A DNA stretch of 64,000 bases from Chloroflexota bacterium. Lineage in GTDB: Bacteria; Chloroflexota; UBA6077; FW602-bin22. Numbering within the stretch: the first letter of the stretch is position 1; every line of letters begins with the position of its first letter. The stretch lies in assembly GCA_016875715.1 (NCBI GenBank), contig VGOZ01000002.1:20608-84607 (forward strand), given 5' to 3'. This document shows, piece by piece, positions 1,656 through 43,237 of this stretch. Under the pieces are notes generated by a model. That model made no database searches and was not told the origin of the DNA. It saw nothing but the letters and a program-made list of their open reading frames with translations. The translations under genes were made by a program, and so were the position numbers.

Positions 1656-2057
1656 CTAGCCCATCGTGTTCGCCGCCTCCGGCTTCACCCGGTAGATGAC
1701 ACGCTGCTCGCCCTCACGGCGGGGGTAGTTGCGGTCGCCCCAGTACTTCTCGCGCAACGAGCAGATGTTGTCAAAGGCGCCTTCCTCGGTCTCATCGACC
1801 ACCTGGCCCCGGATCTGGATGTAGCGGTACGGGTTCTTCGGATCCTGAACCGAAAGCGCGACCTTCGGGTGGCGATGGAGGATGCGGTCCTTCACCCGCC
1901 GCCGCGCCGTGTTGAAGATGATGTGCTCGCCGTCATAGTCGAACCACATCGGCGTCACGTGGGGCGTGCCGTCCTTCGTCACCAGCGCGAGCGAGGCGAA
2001 AGCCTTCGCCTCGCGCCCGAGGATATCGAGAAACCGCTCTGGAATCGCGTTTGCCAT
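1656..2057 (-). CDS. PPOX class F420-dependent oxidoreductase
   Basis: LALVTKDGTPHVTPMWFDYDG...KVALSVQDPKNPYRYIQIRG; GGAAGGAG RBS before ATG 2057. Confidence 0.9.
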   Translation of the reverse strand: MANAIPERFLDILGREAKAFASLALVTKDGTPHVTPMWFDYDGEHIIFNTARRRVKDRILHRHPKVALSVQDPKNPYRYIQIRGQVVDETEEGAFDNICSLREKYWGDRNYPRREGEQRVIYRVKPEAANTMG

Positions 2058-2368
2058 GTGATGTCTCCTTCCGCCTGGTAGAGAGGATGAGGATAGACAC
2101 GCGTTTCGCCACGCGCCGCCACGGCTATCCCGGCCGGAGGCGGAACTCGTCAAAGCAGGGCCAGCGGGACGCATCCTCACCGGACATCTCGGCGGCGAAC
2201 CCGGCGCGGACGGCGTCGGGCGGACGTTCGATCGGGACGCTAACGTGCTTGATCCGGTACGGCATGAGGCCATCCTAGCCGACGGCCTGCGCCGGCCGTC
2301 TTGAACGAATCGGACACCCGGGCGGCTGCACGCCGCCGCCGTTTTCCGACTTTCTGTTGGAGTCATAG

Positions 2369-2380
2369 GAACGGGTGTTC
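2369..2380. promoter_or_regulatory. Putative LexA (SOS) box GAAC-GGGT-GTTC
   Basis: Exact GAAC-N4-GTTC match in an AT-richer intergenic stretch upstream of the GIY-YIG nuclease. Confidence 0.55.
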
Positions 2381-2619
2381 TGCTCTGTAAGGTAGCTAGC
2401 GCCAGGGTAGTCGGCTGTGTCGGGAACGCCCCCACGACTAGATTGGCCTTCTCGCAGCGCCCCCAGCGGGAGAAGGAGCACCGACGTCGCCAGGGCGCGC
2501 GCCGCGCACCCGGACGCCGTATCCTGCGCGCGGGCCATCAGTGACCCCGCAACGAGGAGGTTCGGACTTGCTGCGGTCGCTCCACTGGCGGACGTGCGCT
2601 GCTCGCCGACGACGCGCCC

Positions 2620-3408
2620 GTGCAGCTGGACGAGGTGCGCCGCCGGACGAGCCGGCCAGCGAGCCGCTGCACGACGGGTTCGCCGAGGCCGAGCTGGCTA
2701 GGATGCTACGTCTACGCGCTGCGCGATCCGCGCACCGAGGTCATCTTCTACGTCGGGAAGGGCAAGGGCGACCGCGTCTACCAGCACGCGCGGCACGCCA
2801 AGCGGGTCGACGCGGCAGAAACGCCAGAACAGCTCAAGCTCAGCCGTATCCGCGAGATACTCGCCGGGGGCCACGAGGTCGGCGTCGAGATCATTCGCCA
2901 CGGTATGGACGAGGCGGTCGCCTACGAAGTCGAAGGCGCGGTGATCGACGCCCGCGCTGTGGCCGGCGTCGGTCTCACCAACGCCGTTTCCGGGCATGGG
3001 CTCGCGCGGGGTTGGCGCCCGCTCGACGACATCGTCGCGAGGTACGCGGCAAGACCTGCCGAGATCGCACCCCAGCACCGCGTGATCCTCATCCGGATCA
3101 GGCGGCAGTACAAGGCCGGCATGCCGGCGGACGCGCTCTACGAGGCGACGCGGAAGTGGTGGGCGGCCGCGCCGGCGCGGCGCCGGCCCGAGTGGGCGTT
3201 CGCCGTCCACGACGGGATCGTGCGGGCCGTGTACACGATCGAAGGGTGGGAGCGGCCGCAGGAGCACGAGCGCGTCGGACGACTCAAGAACCGGTGGGCG
3301 TTCTTCGGCCGACGCGACGAACCCATGGAGGATGTGTACCTCTGGACGGACGTATCGCGGTACCTGCCGCGGGGCGCCCAGAACCCCACCCGGTACGTCC
3401 ATTGCTGA
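2620..3408 (+). CDS. LEM-3-like GIY-YIG nuclease (start uncertain; possible frameshift near 2700)
   Basis: YVYALRDPR..IFYVGKGKGDRVYQH, AYEVEGAVID, LTNAVSGH; C-terminal LYEATRKWW...QNPTRYV. Confidence 0.8.
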   Translation: MQLDEVRRRTSRPASRCTTGSPRPSWLGCYVYALRDPRTEVIFYVGKGKGDRVYQHARHAKRVDAAETPEQLKLSRIREILAGGHEVGVEIIRHGMDEAVAYEVEGAVIDARAVAGVGLTNAVSGHGLARGWRPLDDIVARYAARPAEIAPQHRVILIRIRRQYKAGMPADALYEATRKWWAAAPARRRPEWAFAVHDGIVRAVYTIEGWERPQEHERVGRLKNRWAFFGRRDEPMEDVYLWTDVSRYLPRGAQNPTRYVHC

Positions 3409-19817: not shown

Positions 19818-20995
19818 TGAAGGCTCGGCTCACCGCCACCCGCGACCTGTCCTCAGCGGCGCCGGTGACAGCAATGTCCTGGGCCGACCGCGCCGCCGCG
19901 CTCCTTCGCGTGCCGCTGGCGCTGAAGCTGATTGTTGCCAACGGCGCGCTCTTGCTCACCGTCGCCGGCACCGTCGCCTACGTCGATCGGATGGCTTTCG
20001 GCGCCGCGGTATCCGTGACCGCGGTTCCCGGCATCGCGGTGGTCGCCCTCTTCGGCATGATCGCGGCCACAGGCGTGAACGCGCTGCTCGTGCGCTGGGC
20101 GCTTGCTCCCCTTCGCGAACTGGAGCGTGTGGCCACTGCGGTCGAAAACGGCGACCTGCTTGTGCGCGCCCGGCTCGGTCCGATTCGCGATCGGCAGACA
20201 GAGCGCATCGGGGCGCTGGCAAACCGAATCCTCGATGCCCACGATCAGCACCGCCACCAGATAGAAGCCGCCGCCGCCCAACTCTCCCGGCTGAGCGCCC
20301 GGGAGATGGAAACTCGAGAGGTCGAGCGCGGCGAAGTGGCTATCGAACTGCGTGAGGAGATCGGGCAGGTTCTCACCGCCATCACTGTCGCGTTGCAGGC
20401 GCTCGTCAACGAGATCGACGCCGGCGGCCCGCTCGAATCTGCCCAGATTCGCGATCGGGTCGCCGAACTCATCGTCCTGGCCCGTGATTCGCACGAGAGG
20501 TGCCTGCGGCGCGCTCAGGGGCTCCGCCCGAGTGTGCTGGATGACCTGGGTCTCGTGCCGGCGCTCCGTTCCGCCATCGCACGCTTCGGTGCGACGCACG
20601 GCCTGGACATCGTCTTCACCGTGAGCGATCCACCGCCTCGCCCGCCACGTCACGTGGGCACCGCCCTCTATCGTGTTGTGGAGGAGGCAATCGCCAACAC
20701 GGTGCGCCACGCCGGCGCGACACACATCGACGTGGACCTCGTCGTCGATGACGGCGCTCTCCGCGTCGCGATCGTCGACGATGGGCAGGGGTTCGATGCA
20801 ACGCGATCCCTCGACCCGCGGATGCTGGGAATCGCCGCGATGCGTCAGCGGGTTAAGGCGCTGGGTGGGGAACTCGCTCTCTGGAGCGAGGTGGGCGAGG
20901 GGACCCGCGTTGAGGCAAGCGTACCCGAGGGCGCCTGGATGGGCGACGCTCCCACGCCGCATCACATTTCAGGTGATTCCCCGATCCGTGGGTAG
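19817..20995 (+). CDS. Membrane HAMP-HisKA_3-HATPase kinase-like protein lacking the phosphoacceptor His
   Basis: Two TM helices, HAMP, H-box reads ELREEIGQ (normally ELHDEIGQ), LRPSVLDDLGL, EEAIANTVRH, DDGQGF. Confidence 0.85.
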   Translation: MKARLTATRDLSSAAPVTAMSWADRAAALLRVPLALKLIVANGALLLTVAGTVAYVDRMAFGAAVSVTAVPGIAVVALFGMIAATGVNALLVRWALAPLRELERVATAVENGDLLVRARLGPIRDRQTERIGALANRILDAHDQHRHQIEAAAAQLSRLSAREMETREVERGEVAIELREEIGQVLTAITVALQALVNEIDAGGPLESAQIRDRVAELIVLARDSHERCLRRAQGLRPSVLDDLGLVPALRSAIARFGATHGLDIVFTVSDPPPRPPRHVGTALYRVVEEAIANTVRHAGATHIDVDLVVDDGALRVAIVDDGQGFDATRSLDPRMLGIAAMRQRVKALGGELALWSEVGEGTRVEASVPEGAWMGDAPTPHHISGDSPIRG

Positions 20996-38788: not shown

Positions 38789-41065
38789 CTACGGGCGCAG
38801 CCCCGCGACCGCCGCGCGCGCGTCGGCCGGCCCGTTCTCCGCGAACCCCCGGATCAACGCGACCAGACGCCAGCGATCCTCCTCGGCGATCTGCTCGCGG
38901 AACGCGGGCATCGCAAAGCCGGCGATTCCTTCGGTGATCCAGCCGTACAGCTGGCGCTGCGGGTGATCCATGGCGTGCGCCGACAGGTCCGCGGGAGGCG
39001 GCTGGAGGAACCGTCCGGCCGGACCGTCGCCACGCCCGGTCAGGCCGTGGCACTGCGCGCAACTCTGTTGATACAGGATCCGCGCCCGCTCCCATCCCGC
39101 GGCATCCATGGCGACCGGATTCTCCCCGCGTGTCGCGATGCGGATCTGCTCGCTCGCCTCGCTCGCACCCAGGTAGCCACCACCCACGATCGAGACCATG
39201 GCGATGCCCAGGACGATGGGCATCGCCCGGCGGCGTCCGCGCGCGATCCGGCCGCGGCCGGCCAGTAGCACCACGCCGAACAGCAGCAACTGCCCGGCCA
39301 CGATCGCCGAAGTCGTAATGCGGGGCGCAAACGCGGTCTCGCGCGTGCGGGCGGCCAGCGCATCGAGGATCGTCACCTCGATACGAGCCCGCGCGTCCTC
39401 CATTCCTGTGCGGCGGACCAGCGGCTCGATCCTCCAACGCCCCACCGTCGCGAACTGATTCCCTTCGTGCGCGAACAGATCGGGCCCCTCGCGCTGCAGC
39501 GTGATCTCCGTCTCCCCCATGTCCCGATGATCGAGGTGCTGGATGCGGAGAACTGCCTTTTCGACACCGGTGAGATCCCCGGCGACGTGTAGGGTCGTCC
39601 GATTCCGTCCCGCCTCGCCGGGCGCGATCTCCAGTCGCATCGTCAGTCCGCCCGCCGCAACCTGCCCGGCCACCGACCGAAACGCCACCACGGCCTCGCG
39701 GGCGGGCTGCAGGCCGGTCAAGAGACCGGTCAATCCCAGCACCGCAATCGCGGCGACCAGTTCGACCGCTCCGGTCCAGCGAAAGCGCCTCTCAACTCGC
39801 CGGACGGCCGCGGCCGCGATCTGCCCGCTCAGGCGCGCCAGGCCGAGCAACCGCGGCGCAACCAGCCGCCAGTGGAGGATGCCGAAAAGCGCGACGACTC
39901 CCGACAGGGCGAGTTTCAGGAGCAGTGCGCGGCCGTACGGGGTCCGCTCCAGCGCCTCGATCGACCCCACGGTGATGAGCGACTGGATGATGCCGGTCGC
40001 GGCGACGATGCCCACGACCCACACCATCCGCCCGAACCGGGTGACGACCCCCGCTACGATCTGCGACGCCATCACCGTGCCGGATCGCCGCACCGCGCGC
40101 ACCATCAGGAGCAGGGTTACCAGTCCGCCGAACCACGCGCCCGCTGCTGCCAGATGCAGGAGATCGAGTGCGATCCGCACGGCCGGCCACACGAGGGCCG
40201 CCGCCCCGTGCGACCCGAGCGCGATGGTGACGAGGATCGCGCCAGCCATCGCCAGCGCGATCACACGGCTGCCGCTCTCGTGGCGGCTCGTCGCCAGGAT
40301 CAGCGCGATCGTCACACCCAGCGCGCTGCGGATGAGCAGCAGGTATCCGGCGCGGGTGCCCACCAGAGCCTGAGCGAGCGGATCGCCGATTGCCTGTATG
40401 GGCGTCACTTCCGCGGCGGCAGCGGCCTGCGCCAGCGCCATCGCGGTCGTGCCCCCAAGGACCAGGATCGACCCGAGCACGCCGATCCATCCCAGCGCGC
40501 TGTCCCGCGCCTCGTCGATCGCGCGATCGACCTCCGTACGGCCGCGGCCCCACCGACCGAGCACGAGCGGACCGAACAGCAGCACGCCGAACAGGCCCAG
40601 CGCACCGGCGAAGAGCGCCCCCTTCCCGGCGACGGCCAACGTCGTCGGCTCGTACGCCTGTTGCGCGCCGCGCGCGAGCAGCGCGGCCTCCGGTCCCGCC
40701 ACACCCACGGAGAAAGGGATCGTCCCCCGCGTCGTGTGGCCGTCAACTGCCGAGGTGACCCGCCAGGCCAGAACGTAGGTGCCTTCCGGCACGGTCAAGC
40801 CGTCTGCGACGAGGGCGCGTGTATCCCCCGGAACGAGTCGCGGGCTCAGTCGATCGACAGTCGCTCCACGCGCGTCGAGCAGACGCAGATCGGTCAGGCG
40901 CAGTTCGACCGCCTCGGTGTACCAGAGGTAGATCCGCTCCGGCATCGCCGCGATCGTTGAGCCTGCTTCGGGTGCCGACCTTTCGAGTTCGGCGTGCGCG
41001 CGCGCGAGTGCGGGAAGAACGGCGAAGAGAACCAGCGCCGCCAGGACTGCGATCGCACGCACCAC
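38789..41065 (-). CDS. CopC-CopD (YcnJ-like) copper uptake protein with Ig-like domain and C-terminal cytochrome c
   Basis: Signal peptide then HAELERSAP, SAVDGH; GSHGAA, DLLHLAAAGAWFGG, YGRALLLKL; CAQCHG...MPAF. Confidence 0.88.
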   Translation of the reverse strand: MVRAIAVLAALVLFAVLPALARAHAELERSAPEAGSTIAAMPERIYLWYTEAVELRLTDLRLLDARGATVDRLSPRLVPGDTRALVADGLTVPEGTYVLAWRVTSAVDGHTTRGTIPFSVGVAGPEAALLARGAQQAYEPTTLAVAGKGALFAGALGLFGVLLFGPLVLGRWGRGRTEVDRAIDEARDSALGWIGVLGSILVLGGTTAMALAQAAAAAEVTPIQAIGDPLAQALVGTRAGYLLLIRSALGVTIALILATSRHESGSRVIALAMAGAILVTIALGSHGAAALVWPAVRIALDLLHLAAAGAWFGGLVTLLLMVRAVRRSGTVMASQIVAGVVTRFGRMVWVVGIVAATGIIQSLITVGSIEALERTPYGRALLLKLALSGVVALFGILHWRLVAPRLLGLARLSGQIAAAAVRRVERRFRWTGAVELVAAIAVLGLTGLLTGLQPAREAVVAFRSVAGQVAAGGLTMRLEIAPGEAGRNRTTLHVAGDLTGVEKAVLRIQHLDHRDMGETEITLQREGPDLFAHEGNQFATVGRWRIEPLVRRTGMEDARARIEVTILDALAARTRETAFAPRITTSAIVAGQLLLFGVVLLAGRGRIARGRRRAMPIVLGIAMVSIVGGGYLGASEASEQIRIATRGENPVAMDAAGWERARILYQQSCAQCHGLTGRGDGPAGRFLQPPPADLSAHAMDHPQRQLYGWITEGIAGFAMPAFREQIAEEDRWRLVALIRGFAENGPADARAAVAGLRP

Positions 41066-41074
41066 GCTACGAAG

Positions 41075-41707
41075 TCACCCTCGGGTCGACCGAAGCGGGC
41101 CCGATCGCCACGCGAGCGCGATCGTTCCCGCAATCAAGCCGATCGCCCCCGCGATCGCGCCGCCAATTCCGAGCGATCGCGCCATCGCGATCTCGCCGCT
41201 CAGCGCGTCGATCTGACCCTTCAACTCCAGACCGGAGGGAACCTCTTGAGGGAAGTGCAAAGTCGATGCGGGGGTGATGTCGTTGAAGCGGCCCGGACCT
41301 GATTCAAACCGCTCGTTCACCGTCGTCCCGTCGATGGCGCCGACGAACTGAAATGTGTAGGAGCCCGTCTGCGTGGGAATCAGGTCGGCAGTGTACGCGC
41401 CGGGCATGCCGAACCTGGTGCGCAGCGCGTACTCCTTCGGCGCGCCGCCGCCGGCCGCGACCCGTACCCTCAGCGTATTCTGGACGCCCTCCACCGGTGC
41501 GTTCCCATCCGTCTTCGTGACTCGGAAGTCAACGCCGTTTGGCTGGCCTTCAATCGCGGGCTCGTTAATGAATCCGACCACCACCGTGTAGGGACCGAGC
41601 GCACGGCGCTCGTGAGCCGAGGCCAGAGCCGGGAGTAGCGCGGTGAGCGCGAGCGCGAGCAACATCCCGCGCAGGAGAATGAAGGATCGAACCATCGCGT
41701 TGTTCAC
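41075..41707 (-). CDS. Membrane-anchored exported protein with N-terminal His (putative Cu-binding)
   Basis: Signal ...ALASA then HERR; GFINEPA; C-terminal TM; GAAGAGG RBS; directly upstream of copCD. Confidence 0.7.
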   Translation of the reverse strand: MNNAMVRSFILLRGMLLALALTALLPALASAHERRALGPYTVVVGFINEPAIEGQPNGVDFRVTKTDGNAPVEGVQNTLRVRVAAGGGAPKEYALRTRFGMPGAYTADLIPTQTGSYTFQFVGAIDGTTVNERFESGPGRFNDITPASTLHFPQEVPSGLELKGQIDALSGEIAMARSLGIGGAIAGAIGLIAGTIALAWRSGPLRSTRG

Positions 41708-41764
41708 AACCTCTTCTCGGAATAGTGGCGCCGCGCCGGTCGACGCGGCGTGATGGGCGAAGCC

Positions 41765-42136
41765 TCAGGCGAGGTGAGGCTCCGGTGGTGGAAGAGGCGG
41801 TGCGCGGTGGACGCCAGCGGGAGAACGGACAGCCGGGCGAGGCACGACCACGACAGTTGGGGACGGCCGTGACATCGCGATCGCCAGCAGCAGTGCGCCT
41901 ACGACGAACAGTGCCCCGGTCGCGGTCAAACCGGGCAGGAGCGTCGGCGCGGACGTGCGCTCCCGCGCCGTGGCGCGTTCGTCGTGGTGGTGGAGGATCG
42001 CCTGCCGCAGGGGAAGGCTTCCCTGCGCGTCGAAGACCGACCAAGACCCGGCATGGTGGTCTGCCAGCGGCAGGATCAACGCCCCGGCGAGCATGGCCAG
42101 GACGTACGCGCGGGTCACCAGGTTGATCGTGGGCAC
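41765..42136 (-). CDS. His-rich leader ORF with C-terminal RAPP/polyproline (CruR/CutF-like candidate)
   Basis: GAAGGA RBS + GTG; hydrophobic N-terminus, DHH, HHHD, second hydrophobic segment, HRAPPLPPPEPHLA*. Confidence 0.6.
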   Translation of the reverse strand: MPTINLVTRAYVLAMLAGALILPLADHHAGSWSVFDAQGSLPLRQAILHHHDERATARERTSAPTLLPGLTATGALFVVGALLLAIAMSRPSPTVVVVPRPAVRSPAGVHRAPPLPPPEPHLA

Positions 42137-42376
42137 CGGTCCTTCAGTTATATATCGACGTCCGTTTCGCCGGTTTCTCCTCACGCTCGCTTCCGCCGTT
42201 GGCGCGCGCCGGTCGGTGCACGCCGCGTACATCCCCCGGCGATCTTTCCTATCGTTCCAGCAGTGACGGCCGGACGGAGTCCCGACACGCGCGCGACGGT
42301 ATGGGATCGTGAGATGGCCGCCGATGTCGATCGTACGCGGGTCGCCTCGAGCGCGACGCGGGTACACTCCCGGGCG

Positions 42377-43237
42377 ATGGACCGGAGCCACTTCATCGAT
42401 ACGCGCCTCGTCGGCGATGCGCGGATCACGATGATCCTCGACGGCCACGGGTACTGGGCGCCGGAGCTCCAGGTGCCCGAGGCCGAGTGGCGCGCCGCGC
42501 TGCCCCAGGCGAACGCGGCCGGCGAGGTGGGCATCGACTTCTGCGGCGCCCACATTGCCCTCGGCGACGCGTCGATCCTCATCGACCTGGGGTTCGATGA
42601 CATCCCACCCGAGCGCGGCCACTGGGCGACGATGCGCCTGCGGCGCACGCCCGGTGTCGAGGCGGTGCTGGCGGCCATCGGCGTCCGCGCCGAGGAGATC
42701 ACCCACGTCCTCATCACCCATGCGCACGGCGACCACATCGCCGGGGCGATCGCCGAGCGGGACGGACGGCCGGTCGCCCGCTTTCCGAACGCGCGCCACC
42801 TGATCGGTCGGGCGGACTGGGAGCGGAACCCCGAGCGGAACAGCCCCGCGTCGCTCGCCGCGATGCACCTGGGCGGTCTGCTCTCCCGCGGCCTGCTCGA
42901 ACTGGTGGATGGCGTCCGTCCGGTCGCGCCGGGCGTGACGTTCCGACACGCGCCGGGCGAGTCGCCGGGTCATTCCATCGTCGAGGTCCGGTCCCGAGGT
43001 GAGACCTTCCTGCACCTGGGCGATCTGTTCCACTTCCCCTGCGAGTTCGAGCATCTGGGCTGGATTCCGCCGGGGCGCGACCAGGCGACGACCATACTCT
43101 CCCGCCGCGACGCGCTCGAACGCGCGCGAGACGCGGGCGCCCTGCTCGCGTTCTCTCACGGGGTGTTTCCGTGCTGGGGAAGGGTTTCGCCCGAGGGCGA
43201 GCCGGCGCACTGGATGTACGAGGTCGCCACGCGCTAA
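42377..43237 (+). CDS. MBL-fold metallo-hydrolase
   Basis: LITHAHGDHI, FPNARH, APGESPGH, LGDLFH. Confidence 0.88.
   Translation: MDRSHFIDTRLVGDARITMILDGHGYWAPELQVPEAEWRAALPQANAAGEVGIDFCGAHIALGDASILIDLGFDDIPPERGHWATMRLRRTPGVEAVLAAIGVRAEEITHVLITHAHGDHIAGAIAERDGRPVARFPNARHLIGRADWERNPERNSPASLAAMHLGGLLSRGLLELVDGVRPVAPGVTFRHAPGESPGHSIVEVRSRGETFLHLGDLFHFPCEFEHLGWIPPGRDQATTILSRRDALERARDAGALLAFSHGVFPCWGRVSPEGEPAHWMYEVATR

Follow-up and report, generated by a model that had tools for sequence, protein, structure and literature searches.

What does a small, histidine-bearing protein with a proline-rich end do at the head of a copper-type operon, and do its last codons control translation of the genes behind it? 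This question is raised by a 123-aa open reading frame (ORF) on the minus strand (41765..42136) of a 64,000-nt stretch of Chloroflexota DNA, hereafter the window (positions 20,608 to 84,607 of contig VGOZ01000002.1, assembly GCA_016875715.1). The ORF precedes, on the same strand, a gene for a predicted immunoglobulin-like (Ig-like) protein, here called the downstream gene (41075..41707), and a CopC-CopD gene. A sequence-only reading of the window had proposed that ribosomes stall at a RAPP motif near the end of this ORF, that the RAPP codons carry the complement (anti-SD) of the next gene's Shine-Dalgarno (SD) sequence, and that copper binding to histidine clusters relieves the stall. From comparative and folding analyses, and by analogy with published systems, it is probable that the 123-aa gene is a translated stalling leader of the CutF/SecM type, which would control translation of the copper genes behind it.

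The leader gene and its relatives

The leader frame runs from a GTG start (42136) to a TGA stop (41767-41765) and forms the last quarter of a 481-aa ORF (41765..43210, minus). The upstream part of this long ORF is spurious, since it is the antisense shadow of a metallo-beta-lactamase-fold gene (42377-43237, plus). The sequence-only reading had called it spurious too, and all of its coordinates are correct. The leader has a dN/dS of 0.29 relative to a same-genus homologue (78% identity), and further homologues were found in two other genera of the same family (41% and 35% identity) and in metagenomes (94% and 80%), all of them directly 5′ of the same downstream genes. Judged from its translation, homologues and dN/dS, the 123-aa ORF is a real, conserved gene under purifying selection. 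Contigs of four lake-water DNA runs yielded same-strain fragments only, with two single-letter variants (41697 and 41872) and with the anti-SD and SD unchanged; among the public runs listed for the locus, none was of RNA.

The encoded protein contains all of the elements that had been read from it earlier: a hydrophobic N-terminus, DHH and HHHD clusters, a RAPP motif and no Cys (coordinates are on the minus strand here and below). A first hydrophobic segment (residues 6-26, 42059..42121), located by a Kyte-Doolittle scan and present in all six family members scanned, ends in an invariant ADHHA, in which DHH corresponds to residues 26-28 (42061-42053). The HHHD cluster occupies residues 49-52 (41981..41992), as read from the sequence and from a 16-sequence alignment. 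The same scan located a second hydrophobic segment at residues 66-92 (41861..41941), which is above threshold in three of six sequences. The protein ends in HRAPPLPPPEPHLA, and the codons for RAPPLPPP (residues 111-118 of 123, 41783..41806), with RAPP at 41806-41795 and PPP at 41791-41783, form the proposed stall site, the end of RAPP being 9 residues from the leader stop. Five of the eight codons in this stretch are rare (GCA, CCT, CTT, CCA and CCA); GCA, CCT, CTT and CCA each account for 7-9% of their own codon family in the genome.

The sequence-only reading had proposed a check for conserved RAPP and His clusters; both are kept in all homologues of the window's family, and only DHH and HHH extend through the wider alignment. 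R9, A10, ADHHA, HHH and RAPPxPPP are invariant in six of six close homologues from three genera. A profile search against 1.84 billion representatives matched just 14 leader relatives, and the 13 that were inspected have the same DHH/HHH small-protein pattern. In the 16-sequence alignment, R9, A10, DHH, HHH (16/16) and two prolines of PPP are invariant and no Cys is conserved. The DHH-to-HHH gap is 21-25 residues, and HHH is 65 to 91 residues away from PPP. RAPP itself is found in just 6 of the 16 sequences, the rest ending in RSPP, EPPPLPPP, VPVPPPR and similar. A phylum-wide alignment search, which scored 10 candidates per genome and is not proof of absence, detected the leader in 3 of 401 genomes, all in the window's own family, and a word-index protein search with the leader alignment returned no further relatives. 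No Pfam family matched the leader at E up to 0.01, nor up to 10.

A search with a narrower leader alignment returned 2 loci; the wider survey used the downstream protein as query, and this protein is present in 36 of the 61 relatives searched (genome G020 being among the non-matches). Thirty loci with the downstream gene were surveyed: 20 have a small hydrophobic His-rich ORF upstream with a Pro-rich motif a few residues from its end, nine have no such ORF and one is cut by a contig end. Most tails follow the PPxPPP pattern, such as LAPPTPPP, MAPPDPPP, EPPPDPPP and RPPTPPP, L031 and L046 having weaker forms, and the Arg of RAPP is confined to the window's own family. Hence, as far as these alignments indicate, the conserved core is a C-terminal polyproline motif, wider than RAPP. 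At least three further His-motif leader types (L030-L032, L040-L049 and L047/L051/L052/L054) precede the same downstream gene, and profile search made no connection between them; their motifs are PH[DE]HLF..WE.H.HPNPL in one type, LDHHGAERIP..H.H in another and LL[DH]P.F.H.H in one more, with Pro-rich C-terminal tails in all.

In a crude set of confident ORFs from the window's genome, RAPP occurs 7 times where composition predicts 20.4, in agreement with the published under-representation of the motif (PMC12992588; statements from this and other cited sources refer to the parts of them that were available). A genome scan found no second convincing small ORF with R[AG]PP in its last 25 residues. 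Ahead of the leader, GAAGGA (42140..42145) reads as a candidate ribosome-binding site 3 nt 5′ of the GTG, a short spacing. The divergent intergenic region (42137-42376) is 240 nt long and contains an AT-rich GATATATAAC just 5′ of the leader; a consensus scan of 41600-42450 found neither a consensus sigma-70 promoter nor a terminator.

Predicted pairing between the leader tail and the downstream Shine-Dalgarno sequence

In the window, CCUCUUC (41797-41791) is the exact complement of the SD-like GAAGAGG (41716-41710) ahead of the downstream gene, and the spacer contains the CGCCGCG/CGCGGCG hairpin expected to bring the two together, both as described before. Folding of 41830-41690 (141 nt) gave −58.5 kcal/mol (z = −3.09; one shuffled sequence in 200 was as stable) and a predicted closed structure of three helices, the outer one of which shuts the SD-to-start region of the next gene. 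The 5′ arm of this long-range helix (41790..41810), present in both the minimum free energy and the centroid structures, lies in the HRAPPL codons and includes the anti-SD core, while its predicted 3′ arm (41692..41718) holds GAAGAGG and the two candidate starts, GTG 41707 and ATG 41695. The other two predicted helices are hairpin 1, a 10-bp stem across the leader stop codon (41758..41784), and hairpin 2 in the spacer (41729..41750), with 9 bp around the core formed by CGCCGCG (41750-41744) and CGCGGCG (41735-41729).

The SD core of the window has a pairing probability of 0.86, to be compared with a mean of 0.12 for synonymous recodings of the last 20 leader codons, none of which (0/150) reached the native value. 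The rare codons GCA, CCT, CTT and CCA sit exactly where the pairing needs them. Across four loci of the family, the SD pairing probability is 0.83-0.88, and a GC-rich spacer hairpin is found in all four, with compensatory change at 2 of 6 consensus pairs. When the four spacers are folded jointly, this central hairpin alone is recovered, because the anti-SD shifts between loci.

The relation between leader codons and the SD extends beyond the family. The native last 15 leader codons of 19 of the 20 leader loci were compared with peptide-keeping synonymous recodings, drawn from local codon usage, for their pairing to an 11-nt window at the downstream SD (L044, in which the downstream start is ambiguous, was left out). 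The native tail paired with the SD better than its recodings at p<0.05 in 12/19 loci (Fisher 1.9e-10), and two repeats gave similar values (4e-10, 12/19; 1.7e-9, 11/19). Under the same null, no such bias was seen for leader codons −30..−16 (p 0.65, 2/19 loci) or −45..−31 (p 0.41, 0/19), for an A/G-swapped SD (p 0.21, 3/19), for coding 11-mers at +40 and +100 (p 0.97 and 0.96) or for the 11-mer immediately 5′ of the SD (p 0.41). Codon choice in the leader tail is thus biased to SD complementarity across the 19 loci. In 17 of them the best anti-SD overlaps a region of about −12..+15 nt relative to the P-site codon at the last PPP, the exceptions being L027 (+21..+28) and L045 (+9..+19, a partial overlap), so that the anti-SD is mostly within the stretch that would be held by a ribosome paused on the prolines. 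Fold, recodings and footprint geometry agree, in silico, on an SD sequestered by pairing which a ribosome at the stall site would disrupt. Conservation of the SD/anti-SD pairing, on which the sequence-only reading depended, stands in that the SD is predicted to be paired in four of four family loci and the tail codon bias spans the 19 loci; it does not stand for the RAPP codons, where the pairing is specific to the window. At L044 (genome G035), the leader-to-downstream spacer measures 207 nt, and the downstream frame is already open at a strong GGAGGAG-ATG some 30 nt past the leader stop.

These results bear on two other explanations of the locus. The 123-aa product could be a stable small membrane protein and a working part of the copper system, for instance a copper-binding partner of the Ig-like protein or of CopCD, in which PPxPPP serves structure or binding and Pro and Leu codons give the SD complementarity as a by-product. 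Conservation of the metal-type motifs DHH and HHH and of their mutual spacing (21-25 residues) would be in keeping with this, as would the constant association of the leader gene with the same partner genes. It is nevertheless unlikely, given a synonymous-site bias confined to the last 15 codons and to the SD as target, for which the amino-acid sequence cannot account, the peptide being unchanged in the null, and given the position of the rare CCT, CTT, CCA and GCA codons exactly where the pairing forms. The least probable explanation is chance, by which a Pro-rich tail in a GC-rich genome would happen to carry RAPP along with a run of CU-rich letters able to pair with a purine-rich site. CCUC-type words do arise easily from Pro, Leu and Ser codons and SD-like sites are often paired in predictions; conservation across genera, the failure of every recoding in the window to reach native pairing, and the 19-locus test with its flat controls all speak against coincidence.

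Proposed mechanism and known stalling leaders

The closest functional parallel to the proposed stalling leader is CutF of Rhodobacter capsulatus, the leader of cutFOG, which is likewise a small membrane-targeted or exported protein with a metal motif and a C-terminal PPP in a copper-related operon (PMC9973294). In that system, RNA pairing shields the next gene's SD and a paused ribosome opens it, the stall being dependent on PPP and EF-P (bioRxiv 10.1101/2025.02.05.636593); here, the equivalent arrangement is predicted. Unlike CutF, to which it has no sequence relationship, the leader has histidines in place of Cys or CxxxC and an N-terminal hydrophobic anchor in place of a demonstrated cleavable Sec signal. 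Its anti-SD lies inside the stall-motif codons and that of CutF in an intergenic stem-loop. In place of a multicopper oxidase, the genes behind it encode an Ig-like copper protein and CopCD, and the lineage is Chloroflexota. Membership in DUF2946, the CutF/CruR family, was considered and rejected, as there is no Pfam match at E 10, no Cys and no CXXC/CXXXC; the trait shared with DUF2946-type leaders is a C-terminal RAPP/Pro-rich motif at the head of a metal operon, with CopC/CopD downstream. Being without Pfam match and without Cys, the leader is therefore not a homologue of CutF or CruR, and on the evidence above it would work like one of them.

Similarly, CruR of Bordetella pertussis carries RAPP a few residues from its C-terminal end and stands at the head of a copper-regulated operon, copper having been proposed to relieve the stall (PMC9426467). 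Arrest of CruR at RAPP was shown in vitro (PMC12992588). CruR has a CXXC fixed 45 residues from RAPP, unlike the Cys-free leader with its variable spacing, and it acts by Rho-dependent termination. A mechanism of the CruR type, in which Rho loading in the leader's C-rich 3′ end is blocked by a stalled ribosome and release of the stall lets Rho terminate before the copper genes, would draw on the composition of the leader 3′ end and spacer, which are C-rich and G-poor, and on the precedent of CruR itself (PMC9426467). However, a search for the Rho RNA-binding domain came up empty in all four genomes from the window's family (G000-G003; completeness 94, 92, 96 and 73%), and recovered it in 24 of 27 other relatives (23/26 without G020). 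A full-length Rho query of G000-G003 gave ATPase-paralogue matches only, at E about 1e-12. Because Rho was not found in the family, and as the consensus scan of 41600-42450 revealed no terminator-like site, the CruR route is considered very unlikely. The family in which Rho was not found is the same one that has the Arg of RAPP in its leader.

The leader also fits a descriptive class reported in December 2025, consisting of RAPP/RGPP small proteins with transmembrane segments encoded before YcnI-family and other copper genes, some of them with conserved His (PMC12992588). Tested examples are SLIV_16130 and SLIV_18480 of Streptomyces lividans, and conserved histidines are present in one tested example (PMC12992588). 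With these proteins the leader would share transmembrane segments, conserved histidines, a C-terminal RAPP and a copper gene next on the same strand. At 123 aa it is within the size of the arrest-peptide class (<300 residues, motif near the C-terminus), and its hydrophobic windows at residues 6-26 and 66-92, by Kyte-Doolittle alone, agree with the localisation signal of that class. Its family, with 14 relatives, has no detectable homology to other such families, the Streptomyces members having been compared by description only. No RNA mechanism is given for these proteins in the available part of that report; here, an anti-SD pairing is predicted. SecM-secA and ApdA/ApdP resemble the proposal in that arrest at RAGP or RAPP near the leader C-terminus lets a stalled ribosome free a downstream SD (PMC9973294, PMC10951233). 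Those leaders monitor protein export and regulate Sec/YidC components, unlike the present one, which heads copper genes and has metal-type motifs.

In published systems, RAPP is an EF-P-independent arrest motif and LPPP is EF-P-dependent. EF-P is encoded in the window's genome, and a ribosome translating the leader would be expected to pause first through RAPP and then through LPPP. With RAPP/PPP in its peptidyl-transferase centre, it would cover the anti-SD, leaving the downstream ribosome-binding site open and the Ig-like copper protein and CopCD translatable. Upon run-through and termination, the long-range helix would re-form and the copper genes would be shut. That stalling itself occurs is inferred by analogy with RAPP-dependent arrest in seven S. 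lividans peptides, two of them upstream of copper genes, and in CruR (PMC12992588), and with the PPP- and EF-P-dependent stall of CutF.

How a metal could enter this scheme is more speculative. With the ribosome at RAPP, about 33 residues would occupy the exit tunnel, and the N-terminal membrane segment with DHH, together with HHH 23 residues further on, would by then have left the ribosome and would probably lie beyond the cell membrane. Copper bound by DHH/HHH could then alter the pulling force on the nascent chain and hence how long the pause lasts; in an operon of the uptake type, a shorter pause with copper might be expected, the direction being a guess. The DHH-HHH spacing of 21-25 residues and the position of both motifs well outside a ribosome at RAPP would support the suggestion that copper is the signal and that these histidines bind it.

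A number of observations weigh against the stalling-leader reading or parts of it. SD pairing by itself is only mildly unusual, since 200 SD-like background sites in this GC-rich genome have a mean pairing of 0.67 and 20% of them reach 0.83, and in three of the four family loci recodings performed nearly as well as the native tail when judged on pairing probability (p 0.05-0.13). The anti-SD shifts between loci and has no fixed place. In the same-genus genome, the RAPP codons (CCG CCG CTT) mismatch its SD, GAUGAGG, and the SD partner is found at and just after the stop codon, outside a RAPP-stalled ribosome; in the other two family loci it lies in the codons after PPP. Seven of the 19 loci, the congener among them (p 0.77), have no codon bias to pairing, and the Fisher p is overstated because the loci are related. 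The reversed-SD control was not flat (p 4e-4, 3/19), and is a weak control because the SD cores are near-palindromic. GAAGAGG lies 2 nt before GTG 41707 and 14 nt before the likely ATG 41695, an atypical SD spacing for either start. At the protein level, the second hydrophobic segment is not conserved (3/6), and the variable HHH-to-PPP distance counts against a tuned sensor and differs from the fixed CxxC-RAPP spacing of CruR. Leaders outside the window's family lack the Arg needed for RAPP arrest and could rely on polyproline alone, which is normally resolved by EF-P.

Part of this evidence would suit plain translational coupling without metal sensing, in which the anti-SD ties the copper genes to leader translation, the polyproline pause sets the ratio, possibly through EF-P activity, and the histidines serve a separate function of the finished protein. 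The RNA-level evidence fits such coupling equally well. The protein-level constraint along the entire leader (dN/dS 0.29), the HHH-to-PPP spacing, variable unlike that of a tuned nascent-chain sensor, and the presence of EF-P in the genome would all be accommodated. What coupling alone leaves unexplained is a strong arrest motif exactly on the anti-SD, kept in six of six close homologues and with a PPxPPP-type counterpart throughout the class, in a genome that otherwise avoids RAPP; in addition, the published relatives of this architecture are copper-responsive (PMC9426467, PMC9973294). We give plain coupling a real, if minor, chance of being correct and retain the stalling leader as the preferred explanation.

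Copper-type genes behind the leader and the wider class

The downstream gene (41075..41707) lies 57-69 nt beyond the leader stop on the same strand, depending on whether it starts at GTG 41707 or ATG 41695, the latter start giving the better signal peptide. Its product has a signal peptide ending ASA|HERR, an Ig-like beta-sandwich and a C-terminal membrane helix, and the mature N-terminus His-Glu-x-Arg is invariant in 19 homologues. Although this architecture (signal peptide, N-terminal His, C-terminal helix) is YcnI-like, no Pfam family, YcnI included, matched the protein at threshold; the YcnI family and PCu(A)C are among the downstream gene classes enriched next to RAPP/RGPP arrest peptides (PMC12992588). 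Seven of 19 members have weak YtkA-like matches (best E 1.3e-4), and for the downstream protein a profile search of PDB sequences gave no match below E 0.1. An alignment-based model (pLDDT 86, as against 50 for a single-sequence model) predicts the Ig-like beta-sandwich, for which the nearest solved folds are CrdA (Z 11.5, rmsd 2.2 over 100 residues), followed by FetP/P19/FtrA (Z about 10-11) and CopC (Z 8-9); YcnI is absent among the listed structural neighbours.

The third gene (38789..41065, minus) encodes a 758-aa protein in which CopC, CopD and a cbb3-type cytochrome c domain are joined (Pfam CopC 2.6e-17, CopD 3.8e-14, Cytochrome_CBB3 9e-11, with NCBIfam matches); CopC and CopD both exceed the Pfam cut-offs, in line with a CopCD (YcnJ-like) assignment. 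As the nearest folds of the modelled Ig-like protein are copper proteins and the third gene is CopC-CopD, "copper operon" is a reasonable name for the predicted group of leader, Ig-like protein and CopCD gene. In genome G003, a 421-aa ORF that by eye resembles an FTR1/EfeU-like permease (1939..3204, minus) is located 16 nt 5′ of the leader at locus L004, on the same strand. This ORF and the FetP/P19-like fold predicted for the downstream protein, taken together, hint at a link to copper-dependent iron uptake.

Copper-responsive leaders (CruR, CutF) and RAPP upstream ORFs are a recent subject, known chiefly from Proteobacteria and Actinomycetota, with cysteines in those sensors that have been examined closely. 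The novelty claimed for the present locus has to be narrowed accordingly: RAPP upstream ORFs before YcnI-family and copper genes were already reported (PMC12992588) and CruR itself carries RAPP (PMC9426467), which leaves as new a sequence-unrelated, His-only and Cys-free leader family in uncultured lake Chloroflexota. Also new are the anti-SD inside the stall codons, proposed as a concrete RNA mechanism, the synonymous-site comparative evidence for selection on leader-SD pairing, and a series of leader tails that grades from polyproline alone to RAPP, the latter in the family in which no Rho was found.

More broadly, and only as a tentative suggestion, a class of Chloroflexota may use Cys-free, His-based transmembrane nascent chains as extracytoplasmic metal sensors, with one set of codons both stalling the ribosome and supplying the anti-SD of the next gene. 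This class would comprise several unrelated-looking His-motif subfamilies, and the family where Rho was not found might have gained the Arg that turns APP into the EF-P-independent RAPP. The tails RAPPxPPP, in that family, APPxPPP and PPDPPP would then offer a natural series for the role of the Arg.

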